Shown here: positions 5,395 to 45,089 of the stretch, piece by piece
Numbering within the stretch: the first letter of the stretch is position 1
How the letters are laid out: each line of letters starts with the position of its first letter
DNA from: Planctomycetota bacterium
Lineage (GTDB): Bacteria; Planctomycetota; Planctomycetia; Gemmatales; Gemmataceae
Direction: 5' to 3'
Assembly: GCA_021325115.1 (NCBI GenBank)
Contig: JAJPHU010000126.1
Span: forward strand, 3,066-67,065
Length of the DNA: 64,000 nt
Translations under genes and position numbers: made by a program
The notes under the pieces: model-generated
Database searches by the model: none
What the model was told of the DNA's origin: nothing
Seen by the model: only the letters and a program-made list of their open reading frames with translations

Positions 5395-6231
5395 ATGAGC
5401 TGCAGCACCATGAAACTCGGATTGATCAACTCCGCCTGGGCACAAGCCGGATGCGATACCGCCTTTGGCATTCGCATGACCAAGGAGATCGGCTTCGACA
5501 CTATCGATATCTTCGCCGATCCGCTCGACCTCGATGTCCGCGAGCGATGCCTCATCCGCCGTGAATGCGAACGCGTCGGCCTGCCCATCGTCAGCCTTGC
5601 TTGCGTCGCCGTCGGACTTCTCGACTTTAATCCTAGCGTGCAGCGTTTCCATCTTGAACGCTGCCGCCGCTATCTCGACTTAGCTTACGAATATGAGGCC
5701 AAAAATCTGTTGCTGGTGCTAGGTGAGTACATTTGGGAACGCCAGGTCATTGCCCCGGCCGAGCAGTGGCAAACCGGCGTCCGCAACGTCCGCGAGTTGG
5801 GCAAATATGCCGCCGATCTCGGCTTGCAGATCGCCCTGGAGTTGGAGCCGTTCAAGCTCTCGCTCATCAACAATGTCGACACGATGCTGCGTTTCCTGCA
5901 CGATGTCGCTCATCCTGCCGTGCGGGCCAATATTGACATATCGCACTTGCACTTATCGGGCACGGCGGCAGAGGAGCTACAGCGTCTGAAGGGCTTGGCA
6001 ACGCACGTGCATTTGAGCGATTGCGACGGCAAAGTCCACGGCGACCTGCCGCCTGGCCGCGGCGTCGTCGCTTTTCTGCCGTATCTGCGCGAAATCAAGA
6101 ATCTGGCCATCGATGGCGCAATCAGCATCGAGTTGGAGTATTCACCGCAGCCGGAGCGTATCGTCGATTGGGTGCGCGAAGCCTACGAGGCGACGGATCG
6201 GCTGATGCGCCAGGTCGGCTTGCGCGATTAA
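5395..6231 (+). CDS. sugar phosphate isomerase/epimerase (xylose-isomerase-like TIM barrel)
   Basis: 278-aa ORF with the pattern of the AP-endonuclease-2/xylose-isomerase-like fold (...LALELEP..., ...ANIDISHLHL..., HVHLSDCDG..HGDLPPGRG). An alternative start is the Met at 5410. Confidence 0.75.
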   Translation: MSCSTMKLGLINSAWAQAGCDTAFGIRMTKEIGFDTIDIFADPLDLDVRERCLIRRECERVGLPIVSLACVAVGLLDFNPSVQRFHLERCRRYLDLAYEYEAKNLLLVLGEYIWERQVIAPAEQWQTGVRNVRELGKYAADLGLQIALELEPFKLSLINNVDTMLRFLHDVAHPAVRANIDISHLHLSGTAAEELQRLKGLATHVHLSDCDGKVHGDLPPGRGVVAFLPYLREIKNLAIDGAISIELEYSPQPERIVDWVREAYEATDRLMRQVGLRD

Positions 6232-6280: not shown

Positions 6281-6586
6281 GCTGGAGTGGCGGAAACGGC
6301 AGACGCATCGGACTTGAGAAATTGAGCACCGGAGCAGGAAACTCTCCGCGTGAATTCAGTCGAAGTCGGGGAAACCGCAGCACGTCCGAAGATGGTGGCG
6401 GCAATCCCGAGCCAAGCTCCGGTCAGGTCCGGAGAAGGTGTAGAGACTTGGCGGCTGAGGCCTACCGGGAATACCTATGGCCAAGGGAAAGTCCAGACCA
6501 CAAACCGTAAGGGTGGCGAAAGCCATAGTGGTACGAAAATCCGAAGGGACGAAAGTCCCGTGAGGGTTCGAGTCCCTCCTCCAGCA
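6281..6586 (+). tRNA. tRNA-Leu(UAA) interrupted by a group I intron (exons 6281..6315 and 6536..6586)
   Basis: The exons fold as a type-II tRNA. Acceptor GCTGGAG/CTCCAGC; D arm TGGCGGAAACGGCAGACGC; anticodon stem TCGGA/TCCGA; anticodon loop CTT|AAAA (UAA). Long variable arm GGGAC-GAAA-GTCCC; T arm GAGGG-TTCGAGT-CCCTC; discriminator A; CCA not encoded. Confidence 0.9.
6316..6535 (+). ncRNA. group I self-splicing intron, IC3-like, in the tRNA-Leu anticodon loop
   Basis: 220 nt inserted between U34 and A35. P1 has a U.G pair (cttGA / TTGAG). Conserved blocks resemble the Anabaena tRNA-Leu intron as I recall it: AATTGAGC, GGGGAAACC, GGCAATCCCGAGCCAAGC, AGAAGGTGTAGAGACT, AAAGTCCAGACC, GGCGAAAGCC. 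It ends in G and contains no internal ORF. Confidence 0.85.
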
Positions 6587-6624
6587 TCTTGAGTAACAAA
6601 GTCGAACAACAAGGAGTGAAACAC

Positions 6625-8430
6625 GTGGCGGAGTGGCAGCGCACGCACACCTGCGGTGAATTGCGGCAAACACACATCGGACAGACGGTCGTACTCAACG
6701 GCTGGGTCAACAGTTACCGGGCCTACAACGATCAAGTTTTTGTTGATCTGCGCGATCGCTATGGGCTAACTCAGGTGGTCTTCGAATCCGATCAAGCCGA
6801 ATTGTTTGCTGCCGCTGGCGACATCCGCAACGAATGGGTACTGTCGGTGCGGGGCAAGGTGCGCGAACGTCTGCCGGGCAAGCACAATCCGAAGCTGGCC
6901 ACTGGCGACATCGAACTGGTGGCCGATGCACTGCATATCCTCAACCGTTGTCCGCCGCCGCCGTTCGAGGTCATGTCCATACCGTTGGAGACAGGCTTCG
7001 GTGATCCCGAATTGGCCGGCGAAGATCTGCGCTTGCAATATCGCTATCTCGATCTGCGTCGGCCCACACTGCAACGCACGCTCAGCTTGCGTCATCGTCT
7101 CAACAAAGTCATCCGTGATTACCTCGACTTTCAGGGATTTCTGGAGTTAGAAACGCCCCTATTGGGGCGCAGCACGCCGGAAGGCGCCCGTGATTATCTG
7201 GTGCCCAGTCGTATTTGGCGCGACGAAAAGACAGGCCGACCGCACTGGTATGCTCTGCCGCAGTCGCCGCAGCTATACAAACAGCTCCTCATGGTGGCTG
7301 GCTACGATAAATATTTTCAAATCGCCCGTTGTCTGCGCGATGAGGACTTGCGCGCCGATCGGCAGCCGGAGTTCACGCAGCTCGACCTGGAAATGTCCTT
7401 TGTCGAAGTGAACGACGTGCTGGTGCTCATCGAGGGACTGATCGCCGAGATCTTCCAGCGCTGCGCCGGTGTGACGATTCCCTTGCCGTTGCCCCGACTG
7501 GGTTACGAAGAAGTTATGCTCAAGTACGGCAGCGACAAGCCGGATTGGCGTTTTGGCCTGGAGATCGCTGAGTTGAGCGACCTGGCAACACAGACGACCT
7601 TCAAGATCTTTCAAGAGGCCATTTCTTCCGGCGGCAAAGTGCGCGGCCTGAATGTTGTCGGCGGCGCAGAGAAGTTTTCGCGCAAGGGAATCGACCAATT
7701 GACCGAATTCGTCGGCCGGCTGGGGGCGAAGGGATTGGCCTGGATCAAGGTCGAGGCTGACAAGTTTACGTCGCCGATCGAGAAGTTTCTACCAGCAGAC
7801 GCACAGGCAGCGCTGCGGCAGCGGCTGAAGGCAGGCACCGGCGATCTGCTGCTGATCGTTGCTGGCCAAGAAGAGATCGTTTGCCAAAGTCTCGGTGCCT
7901 TGCGCACACACCTGGCAACCACGCTGGGGCTGATCGATTCGGCGCGGCGCGACTTCCAAGCGGCCTGGATTATCGATTTTCCTTCGTTTATTTGGGACGC
8001 GGAGGAAAAGCGCTGGGCAGCCAATCACCACCCGTTCACGGCGCCACGCGATGAGGATCTGCCCCTGCTGGAAAGCGAGCCAGCGAAGGTACGGGCCAAG
8101 GCATATGATCTGGTCATCAATGGATACGAAGTAGGCGGCGGCAGCATTCGTATTCACAATCCGGAAGTACAGGCGCGTATCTTCGCCGTGCTCGGCATGG
8201 CACCGGAGCAAGCACGACAGCGTTTCGGCTTCCTGCTCGATGCGCTCAAATACGGTGCTCCGCCGCACGGCGGCATCGCTCTGGGGCTCGACCGTCTGAC
8301 CATGATTCTTTCAGGCACAACGAACATCCGCGATGTCATCGCCTTCCCGAAGAACCAGAAAGCCCGTGATCTGATGACAGGAGCACCCGCTGCGGTGGAT
8401 CCGAAGCAGCTACGTGAGTTGGGACTGTGA
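6625..8430 (+). CDS. aspS: aspartate--tRNA ligase
   Basis: Full-length bacterial AspRS: an OB-fold N-terminus (TCGELR...VVLNGWV), class II motifs (FQIARCLRDEDLRADRQPEFTQLD; GGGSIRIH; GIALGLDRL) and the GAD insertion. GTG 6625 sits 8 nt after AAGGAG (6611-6616). The TTG at 6589 in the ORF track would abut the tRNA. Confidence 0.95.
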   Translation: MAEWQRTHTCGELRQTHIGQTVVLNGWVNSYRAYNDQVFVDLRDRYGLTQVVFESDQAELFAAAGDIRNEWVLSVRGKVRERLPGKHNPKLATGDIELVADALHILNRCPPPPFEVMSIPLETGFGDPELAGEDLRLQYRYLDLRRPTLQRTLSLRHRLNKVIRDYLDFQGFLELETPLLGRSTPEGARDYLVPSRIWRDEKTGRPHWYALPQSPQLYKQLLMVAGYDKYFQIARCLRDEDLRADRQPEFTQLDLEMSFVEVNDVLVLIEGLIAEIFQRCAGVTIPLPLPRLGYEEVMLKYGSDKPDWRFGLEIAELSDLATQTTFKIFQEAISSGGKVRGLNVVGGAEKFSRKGIDQLTEFVGRLGAKGLAWIKVEADKFTSPIEKFLPADAQAALRQRLKAGTGDLLLIVAGQEEIVCQSLGALRTHLATTLGLIDSARRDFQAAWIIDFPSFIWDAEEKRWAANHHPFTAPRDEDLPLLESEPAKVRAKAYDLVINGYEVGGGSIRIHNPEVQARIFAVLGMAPEQARQRFGFLLDALKYGAPPHGGIALGLDRLTMILSGTTNIRDVIAFPKNQKARDLMTGAPAAVDPKQLRELGL

Positions 8431-8521: not shown

Positions 8522-9145
8522 TTAGCGTTGGGCGACGCCAAGCGTGGGCAAGGTTAGCGTGACCGGCGTGGTTTGTCCAGCTTTCACCGTGACGACCTTT
8601 TCGGCTTTGATAGGCTTGCCAGCTCGGACCACTTCAGCCCGGAGAGTATATTGATACTCCTTGCCAGGCTCCAAGATCGGCGACTGAAAGACACGGCTTG
8701 CACCGGTCGAGGTAGTTGCCTCGTTGTCGATGAGCAACTTGGCATCGGCAGGCAGCTCGACCACGATGGTCGCCGGCGCTGGCGCCATGCCTTCTTCTCG
8801 TTTTTCCTGCGGCTTCGGGGCTTTTTCGCCTCGAGGCTGCTGGGGGGCACCCTGGATGATTACGCCGCCACCATAGCCGTAGCCGCCGTAGCAGCCCATG
8901 CAGCCGTAACCCCAGCCACCGCCGTAGCAGCCCATGCAGCCGTAACCCATGCCCCAGCCGCCGTAGCAACCCATGCAGCCGTAACCCCAGCCACCGCCAT
9001 AACAGCCACAACAGCCGTAACCCCAGCCGCCGCCATAACAGCCGCAGCAACCATGCCTACGTCCACCATAGCAGCCACCGCGACAGCCAAAATCCGGCAG
9101 ATCTACACCAGTCGTTAACGCTGCCATCAGGACCACACTGTACAT
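8522..9145 (-). CDS. secreted Cys/Gly/Tyr/Trp-repeat protein with C-terminal TIGR03000-type domain
   Basis: Signal-like N-terminus MYSVVLMAALTTG, then GCCGCYGGGWGYGC(C/M)GCYGG repeats. The C-terminus ATIVVELPADAKLLIDNEATTSTGASRVFQSPILEPGKEYQYTLRAEVVRAGKPIKAEKVVTVKAGQTTPVTL matches the planctomycete TIGR03000 domain. ATG 9145 is preceded by GGGAGGTGA. Confidence 0.8.
   Translation of the reverse strand: MYSVVLMAALTTGVDLPDFGCRGGCYGGRRHGCCGCYGGGWGYGCCGCYGGGWGYGCMGCYGGWGMGYGCMGCYGGGWGYGCMGCYGGYGYGGGVIIQGAPQQPRGEKAPKPQEKREEGMAPAPATIVVELPADAKLLIDNEATTSTGASRVFQSPILEPGKEYQYTLRAEVVRAGKPIKAEKVVTVKAGQTTPVTLTLPTLGVAQR
8864..9090 (-). repeat. coding tandem repeat (GCxGCYGGGWGY units)
   Basis: On the plus strand, near-identical units recur head to tail: gccgtagcagcccatgcagccgtaaccccagccaccgcc. 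They lie entirely inside the CDS above. Confidence 0.7.
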
Positions 9146-9449
9146 CGAAGTCACCTCCCTAAAAATTGGAACAACCCAGCAGCCCCGCGTGGAGAACCCC
9201 TCCACGTCTCAGGCTGTCCGTTTTGAGGCTATCCCGAACAACAGTGGTCGTGGACAAACGAAGAAAAGAAGTGCCCCACATCCTGCAGGGGAGCCAAAGA
9301 TAGCTCGCTCGTGCATTCAAGCCTTGGGCCCTCCTTCCCCACAACGGCGGATATTGCATCCCGCCGCTACGCTACCGATTGTAGCGATTGAGATGAATAG
9401 TAAAGTAGGCAAAAAGGGGTGTCAATAGCAATTTGGGAAGTTTAAGAAG

Positions 9450-44789: not shown

Positions 44790-44915
<126 letters not shown>

Positions 44916-45089
44916 CGATACCGCCTCGCGGAAGGGGACCAGAGCATGAGCCACGTCTTCGCTGCATCTTTGGACTCGGCCCCGTGCCGGATTCTTGGAA
45001 AAACCCCGTTTACCGTTTAGCCGCGACTCGAAGGGAAGCGCGGGGGGGTGTTCGCCTACACCTCGCGGCAAAACGAAGGAGGACTTTTT

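Follow-up and report, generated by a model that had tools for sequence, protein, structure and literature searches.

Among the closest described systems are the group I introns of cyanobacterial tRNA-Leu(UAA) genes, such as those of Synechococcus elongatus (Sel1) and Anabaena/Nostoc, and the IC3 intron of the Azoarcus tRNA-Ile(CAU) gene, for which crystal and cryo-EM structures have been reported (PMC13168695). Further tRNA-Leu-TAA introns are described from Beggiatoa/Thiomargarita (PMC4853749) and, as the Ncf2 intron, in Williams 2020 (bioRxiv 10.1101/2020.01.27.920355). That survey counts 5292 bacterial tRNA genes split by group I introns, broken down in a phylum table, and defines the Leu.3Ug class of bacterial tRNA-Leu introns. 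Genes split in this way lie outside what standard tRNA finders are built to detect (PMC8450103).

Here, we describe a split tRNA-Leu(UAA) gene in a planctomycete window, that is, the whole 64-kb stretch of DNA that was analysed. In the reading that we favour, with a probability of roughly 0.9, the segment 6281-6586 represents a functional tRNA-Leu(UAA) gene carrying a Leu.3Ug group I intron between U34 and A35, and this gene has been inherited in a planctomycete lineage. The features on which this reading is based are collected in Table 1.

Table 1. Coordinates of the split tRNA-Leu(UAA) gene, of the elements of its intron and of the neighbouring genes in the window
Feature	Position	Strand	Details
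Xylose-isomerase-like TIM-barrel gene	5395-6231		upstream of the split tRNA
5' exon of tRNA-Leu(UAA)	6281-6315	+	acceptor 5' strand, D arm, anticodon-stem 5' strand, C32 U33 U34
P1, CUU/GA with UUGAG, GAAA loop	6313-6326	+	strands 6313-6317 / 6322-6326
Group I (IC3-type) intron, 220 nt, without endonuclease ORF	6316-6535	+	RF00028, model R1, covariation
P2 hairpin	6328-6351	+	GAAA tetraloop 6338-6341; compensatory change in 8/9 pairs across phyla, 4 within the planctomycete clade
P3 5' strand, UCAGUC	6356-6361	+	partner 6453-6458; 6/6 pairs covary; 98.7% of cells paired
P4, around J4/5, P5 and P5a	6366-6410	+	strands 6366-6370 / 6406-6410; P4 97% paired; MFE-recovered
P5; P5a	6375-6378 / 6398-6401; 6381-6397	+	enclosed by P4
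P6 and P6a hairpin	6411-6439	+	P6 6411-6413 / 6437-6439, 96.7% of cells paired; P6a 6417-6434
P7 5' strand, G(A)GACU, bulged A	6443-6448	+	identical to Azoarcus and Synechococcus introns (published alignment)
P3 3' strand, GGCUGA	6453-6458	+	modelled pairing and alignment A1
P8 hairpin, GGCC/GGCC stem	6459-6482	+	receptor-like internal motif CCUA...UAUGG; 98.8% paired; 3/4 pairs compensatory
P7 3' strand, AGUCC	6490-6494	+	partner of 6443-6448
P9 three-way element	6497-6532	+	P9 6497-6501 / 6528-6532; MFE-recovered
P9a; P9b	6505-6512; 6514-6525	+	P9a GUAA loop; P9b GAAA loop 6518-6521, 4/4 pairs compensatory
Terminal guanosine (omega-G)	6535	+	directly 5' of the 3' splice site
3' exon of tRNA-Leu(UAA)	6536-6586	+	A35 A36, anticodon-stem 3' strand, variable arm GGGAC-GAAA-GTCCC, T arm, acceptor 3' strand
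AAGGAG ribosome-binding site	6611-6616	+	read from the sequence, 8 nt 5' of the aspS start
aspS (aspartate--tRNA ligase), start GTG 6625	6625-8430	+	38 nt past the tRNA 3' end; NF001750, 809 bits
TIGR03000 'plancto_dom_1' protein	8522-9205	-	Cys/Gly-rich CYGGGWGYG-like repeats, then the domain

When the two exons are joined in silico, ARAGORN reports an 86-nt tRNA-Leu(UAA) (call taa), joined between positions 34 and 35, whose acceptor stem has 7 bp, whose variable arm is long and whose T loop reads TTCGAGT; the exons thus fold as the complete type-II tRNA that the preliminary description had proposed. The discriminator base is A, and CCA is not encoded. The anticodon loop reads CTT, 220 nt, AAAA, with G6316 as the first base of the insert. 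The earlier placement of the interruption between U34 and A35 of the UAA anticodon is therefore exact, as are the exon and intron coordinates given with it, and the sequence blocks quoted at that stage are all found in the window. An anticodon-loop insertion of the form CUU/...g/AAAA in a valid spliced tRNA-Leu(UAA) is what characterizes the Leu.3Ug class. A pattern made from P7, P9 and the 3' exon of the locus matched once in the window, versus no match in 100 shuffles. The gene is easily missed: a stock, intron-blind tRNA scan of the whole 64-kb window returned no tRNA. The intron mode of ARAGORN detected the split gene but misplaced the splice site and called a tRNA-Ser(gga).

The fold of the insert was modelled from P1 to P9 by homology to the consensus of bacterial tRNA/tmRNA group I introns in the supplement of Williams 2020. 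In the window, each of the 64 modelled pairs is canonical, and the core helices P3-P8 occur in canonical order with the P3/P7 pseudoknot of a group I intron. Alignment A1, made with MAFFT, comprises 40 homologous introns that represent eight phyla or classes. Standard pairs fill 92.1% of its pair cells, compared with 30-44% after the partners are shifted by 1-3 columns; 36 of 58 pairs are changed on both sides, and none of 500 shuffles matched any of the observed measures. P2, P3, P6, P6a, P8 and P9b all covary. P6, for example, occurs as GCC/GGU, GCU/AGU and GCG/CGU, and all six pairs of P6a show compensatory change across phyla, five of them within the planctomycete clade. P7 and part of P9 were fixed by the search pattern and are hence invariant in the alignments, so that these positions carry no covariation weight. 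The form of P7 is nevertheless that of the subgroup: P7 with a bulged A (G-A-GACU/AGUCC) is the same in the window as in the Azoarcus (Aol6) and Synechococcus (Sel1) rows of the published curated alignment. In the homology model, P7 would be the guanosine-binding helix, pseudoknotted across P3.

Other lines of evidence agree with this fold. A covariance model of 233 positions (R1) was built from A2, a set of 32 Leu introns taken from A1, none of them from Planctomycetota. Although not fully independent, since its seeds were retrieved with a window-derived pattern, R1 gave a single match in the window, at 6310-6543 (+), which spans model positions 1-233 of 233 and scores 195.9 bits (E=4.7e-65); none of its pairs was flagged as non-canonical. 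When the window was threaded into the published curated alignment, which holds the Azoarcus and Synechococcus elongatus introns, all consensus pairs of P3, P4, P6, P6a, P7 and P8 were formed; the automatic threading misplaces P2 and P9a (48/61 pairs overall), and the core helices alone were used as evidence. Minimum free energy folding recovers P2, P3, P4, P5, P6a, P8 and P9 (z = -2.47). A check proposed at the outset, the formation of P3-P9 in a covariance alignment, accordingly had a clearly positive outcome.

The proposed search with the Rfam model RF00028 had a divided outcome. In a region-only search of 481 nt, the match is significant (E=1.6e-6), but its 32.3 bits lie below the curated gathering cutoff of 50, and its 3' end is misaligned into the tRNA variable arm. 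A default Rfam scan of the window is therefore silent at the locus. The homologues score 35-56 bits with this model, and two of them, L121 (56.3) and L136 (54.2), pass the cutoff. According to Williams 2020, the RF00028 seed holds no bacterial sequence, and 18-20 bits served there as a working score. The low score of the planctomycete introns is thus attributable to the Rfam model with its seed lacking bacteria. Separately, the sole gathering-level Rfam match in the window is a cobalamin riboswitch aptamer at 44798-44922 (+) (RF00174, 41 bits versus a cutoff of 31.5). Taken together, the fold, the covariation, R1 and the curated alignment agree with the original assignment to the cyanobacterial/Azoarcus IC3 type, and at the level of comparative sequence analysis they confirm 6316-6535 as a group I intron in tRNA-Leu(UAA).

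The window intron shares with the cyanobacterial tRNA-Leu(UAA) introns the gene, the insertion site (CUU, intron ending in g, AAAA), the U·G pair at the 5' site, the terminal G, the order of P1-P9, the GAAA loops of P2 and P9b, and the blocks GGGAAACC, CAAUCCnGAGCCAAGC, GAAGGUGnAGAGACU and AGUCCA. The identity to Sel1 is about 58% over the aligned positions; GCAGAGACU and AGUCCAAUUCUC of the cyanobacterial intron correspond to GUAGAGACU and AGUCCAGACCAC in the window, whose intron differs further in being GC-rich, in its short P6a and P9a, and in its planctomycete host. The subgroup architecture and a near-identical core (...UCGGnGAAACC..., GGCAAnnCCGAGCCAAGC, GAAGGUGUAGAGACU and AAGGnAnAGUCCAG) are common to the window and the Azoarcus intron, at an overall identity of about 60%. 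However, the Azoarcus intron lies in another tRNA and at loop position 5 instead of position 3, and it has a simple P9 hairpin in place of the three-way P9/P9a/P9b element. By reference to the Azoarcus structure, the internal motif of P8 is a putative tetraloop receptor. The Ncf2 and the Beggiatoa/Thiomargarita introns resemble the window intron in class, in GC-richness and in the three-way P9 element, and they were likewise overlooked by tRNA annotation. Ncf2 is 62% identical to the window, whose clade is distinguished by the lineage-specific joiners J3/4 GAA and J7/3 UUGG.

Both splice sites are marked as expected from the preliminary description. The 5' splice site lies at a wobble pair in P1, U6315 opposite G6324, and U·G is found at this place in 38 of 39 aligned introns of A1. 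The insert does end in a guanosine, G6535, and an intron-final G is present in 100 of 100 verified homologous introns among the matches listed. P10 could comprise only about 2 bp. By analogy with the established chemistry of group I introns, splicing may proceed as follows. The precursor would be transcribed, possibly together with aspS, and the intron would fold to P1-P9 including the P3/P7 pseudoknot. P1 would present U6315, wobbling with G6324, and an external guanosine bound in P7 would attack 3' of U6315. G6535 would then occupy the same P7 pocket, and the free 3'-OH of U34 would attack before A6536, so that the exons would be joined to give the UAA anticodon and the intron would be released. 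These catalytic steps, and the self-sufficiency of splicing, are here inferred from the known systems.

Some relatives of the family, the plastid tRNA-Leu introns, are not known to self-splice in vitro. Given these relatives, dependence on a protein stays as a minor rival: the group I fold would be present in the window, but splicing would require a host protein or be poor alone, and under physiological conditions the intron would be no autonomous ribozyme. The minimal P10 would fit this possibility, as would the joiners, which are GAA in J3/4 and UUGG in J7/3 where the consensus of the other phyla has AAA and UAGA, and the receptor-like motif of P8, which differs from the common CCUAAG...UAUGG. 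On the other hand, the catalytic core is near-identical to those of the Azoarcus and Synechococcus introns, neither the L2 and L9b GAAA loops nor any core helix is disrupted and all of them are conserved, and the clade-specific joiners are fixed in six of six planctomycete introns, indicating that they are tolerated. We therefore consider protein dependence unlikely.

The survey of homologues changed the significance that had been attached to the locus. A generic IC3 core pattern (ATCCYGAGCCAAGC ... AAGGTGYAGAGACT) gave at least 120 matches in viral contigs alone (IMG/VR, L001-L120). A narrower pattern, consisting of the GC-rich P7-P9 form and the Leu 3' exon, was used to scan bacterial genomes at one genome per species. 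It gave at least 120 matches in these species-representative genomes, from at least eight phyla or classes; the sample is pattern-selected, not random, and the counts are lower bounds. The matches listed come from Acidobacteriota, Alpha- and Gammaproteobacteria, Bacteroidota, Bdellovibrionota, Chloroflexota, Firmicutes and Planctomycetota, the last with at least seven genomes that include two Gemmataceae and one Tepidisphaerales. We verified 100 of the 120 listed matches as tRNA-Leu split between positions 34 and 35 (96 UAA with U-1 and 4 CAA with C-1), and most of the remaining ones are cut by locus edges.

These results do not support the earlier view that such introns are known only from cyanobacteria and a few proteobacteria, with none in Planctomycetota, and the case for rarity is further undone by the 5292 split bacterial tRNA genes already published, as counted in Williams 2020. 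In the literature covered, which included the text of that survey, we found no paper specifically describing a planctomycete tRNA group I intron. Since the same intron occupies the same site in many phyla and in other planctomycetes, the window intron is an ordinary class member; the locus is a real Leu.3Ug gene and not novel in kind.

Two of the homologous loci deserve separate mention. A 3-kb contig of a MAG assigned to Candidatus Woesearchaeota archaeon (L211, CAYMJZ010000082.1) carries a bacterial-type split tRNA-Leu intron (R1, 128 bits) and is most likely a misbinned bacterial contig; misbinning is also suspected for a similar case in Williams 2020. In Salinisphaera sp. PC39 (L187, 6070-6246 and 6562-6777), the 5' half of the intron is unalignable to the family and R1 gives only 82 bits, with a second partial intron-like match of 45 bits about 300 nt upstream. 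This may be a rearranged or degenerate intron copy.

Within the survey, the window intron belongs with those of other planctomycetes. Its nearest relatives among the matches listed are L210 (90% identity; Gemmataceae MAG SMAG_U3846, DATBGU010000308.1), L149 (89%; Planctomycetota MAG MFD09603), the Gemmataceae intron L237 (82%), L209 (81%) and L122 (78%), whereas the listed introns of other phyla reach at most 74% identity. In a neighbour-joining tree of the matches listed, the window intron and these five, all from Planctomycetota, form one clade. Over the whole split gene, L210 and L149 are 90-92% and 89% identical to the window, with the same helices and, in L210, a 5' exon that differs by 1 nt; the flanking genes are others, and where P2, P6a and the tRNA variable arm differ, the changes are compensatory. 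L237 (Gemmataceae MAG SMAG_U14588) has an insertion of about 84 nt in P5a relative to the window and is elsewhere 82-85% identical to it. Across the six planctomycete introns, 98.1% of the cells pair and 11 pairs are changed on both sides, and in the planctomycete exons the acceptor stem and the variable arm have changed in a compensatory manner. This combination of intron pairing and exon covariation suggests that selection has kept the tRNA as well as the intron functional.

The position of the window intron inside the planctomycete clade makes it look inherited in the lineage and not recently acquired. Alternatively, a recent horizontal transfer from another phylum could have brought in the intron alone or the entire split gene. 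Cross-phylum transfer does occur in this family, in which the introns of one Gammaproteobacterium and of a subgroup of Terriglobia branch within those of Alphaproteobacteria, and four loci carry an upstream relic of a displaced intron-less 5' half. Moreover, the flanks of the planctomycete loci are not syntenic, and neither aspS nor the TIM-barrel gene lies beside tRNA-Leu in any other planctomycete locus examined. Against a transfer stand not only the all-planctomycete clade of the five nearest introns but also two measures over the matches listed: the nearest neighbour of an intron belongs to the same phylum or class in 88 of 98 cases, versus about 23 by chance, and intron and exon distances are correlated (Mantel rho 0.55, p<=0.001). 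In addition, the GC content of the intron (58.2%) equals that of its surroundings (58.8% for the window), and a second tRNA-Leu 5' half upstream, of the relic kind, is absent from the window. We thus regard a recent transfer as quite improbable. Judged by sequence comparison, the intron looks to have been inherited together with its tRNA gene within a planctomycete, Gemmataceae-related lineage.

The signs of transfer elsewhere in the family are of two kinds. The introns of the Terriglobia loci L138, L143, L144, L160, L163, L176 and L182 and of Halioglobus (L146) fall inside the alphaproteobacterial cluster at distances of 0.17-0.20, which suggests that the intron, or the tRNA locus as a whole, has crossed between phyla. 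In L158 (Bdellovibrionales), L181 (Bdellovibrio), L166 (Alphaproteobacteria) and L191 (Bacteroidetes), a truncated second tRNA-Leu(UAA) 5' half lies 144-210 nt upstream. These halves are identical to exon 1 at 29-35 of 38 nt and have an uninterrupted CTTAAAA loop followed by unrelated sequence. They look like the displaced intron-less gene, perhaps left by locus replacement through recombination. Half of the apparent second 5' exons proved to be ARAGORN false positives and were set aside.

Uninterrupted genes also bear on whether the window locus is alive. If it were a dead or decaying pseudogene disrupted by its intron, UUA and UUG would be read by another tRNA-Leu gene. Uninterrupted tRNA-Leu(UAA) genes with the same junction number at least 120 in metagenomes. 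The closest among the matches listed, L283 and L355, lie on soil metagenome contigs of about 1.1 kb without informative flanks; they have the acceptor, D, anticodon and T arms of the window clade and differ by compensatory changes in the variable arm only, which makes them candidate intron-less alleles in relatives. Together with a sigma-70 scan that found no promoter-like site at the locus, although such a scan says little for Planctomycetota, these genes are what could be cited for a pseudogene. However, all helices of the tRNA and the intron are intact, and exons and intron are 81-92% conserved, with compensatory changes, in planctomycete genomes whose flanks are not syntenic, a pattern that a pseudogene would not be expected to show. 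This explanation is therefore very improbable.

A protein-coding function of 6281-6586 has a negligible chance of being correct, because, although ORFs of 80-105 codons exist at 6350-6592 (+), 6356-6673 (-), 6462-6710 (-) and 6475-6735 (-) and aspS could be extended from TTG 6589, none of the ORFs has a Pfam match, the covarying structured RNA accounts for the region fully, the gene caller of a public assembly has nothing here and starts aspS at GTG 6625, and an AAGGAG motif lies 8 nt before that GTG. The assembly in question, GCA_037025125.1, has the exact 601-aa AspS on record and no gene called over the split tRNA, and its contig and the window disagree at 3 of 7806 bases. Translated from GTG 6625, residue 4 of AspS aligns to position 3 of the 590-position NCBIfam profile. 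The profile alignment and the identical public product thus bear out the start that the preliminary description had chosen, as the missing Pfam matches bear out its dismissal of the ORFs over the intron as artefacts. Its further statement that the intron has no internal ORF stands in part: there is no Pfam match and no endonuclease, but stop-free stretches of up to 70 codons exist and several six-frame ORFs cross the intron. No homing endonuclease ORF (LAGLIDADG, GIY-YIG, HNH or similar) was found in the intron, which at 220 nt is too small for such a gene; without one, it is not an actively homing element.

The neighbourhood is consistent with the presumed host, since the TIGR03000 protein encoded downstream and the occurrence of the closest introns in Gemmataceae both support the planctomycete origin suggested at first sight. 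A scan found no terminator-like site between the tRNA and aspS, and co-transcription of the split tRNA with aspS is therefore possible.

The working split gene inherited in a planctomycete lineage is first of all of practical value. As tRNA finders are not built for split genes, the genome would seem to be without tRNA-Leu(UAA), and annotation could place spurious ORFs over the locus or begin aspS at the wrong codon. For the evolution of the family, the window adds one further data point to an already broad distribution. The grouping of the introns by host phylum and their co-variation with the exons, among the matches listed, favour long co-inheritance with occasional transfer, a conclusion that rests on the survey and not on the window locus, and for which a larger survey has already been published. 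More far-reaching is the idea that the tRNA-Leu(UAA) intron is old and mostly vertical in many phyla, with a planctomycete clade of its own, as opposed to a cyanobacterial invention that has occasionally leaked; we hold this to be doubtful, with an outside chance of being right. If it is true, the intron may have entered the gene before several phyla diverged, and the long-running question of whether it is ancient or has spread laterally could be tested directly by mapping occupied and empty sites throughout Planctomycetota.
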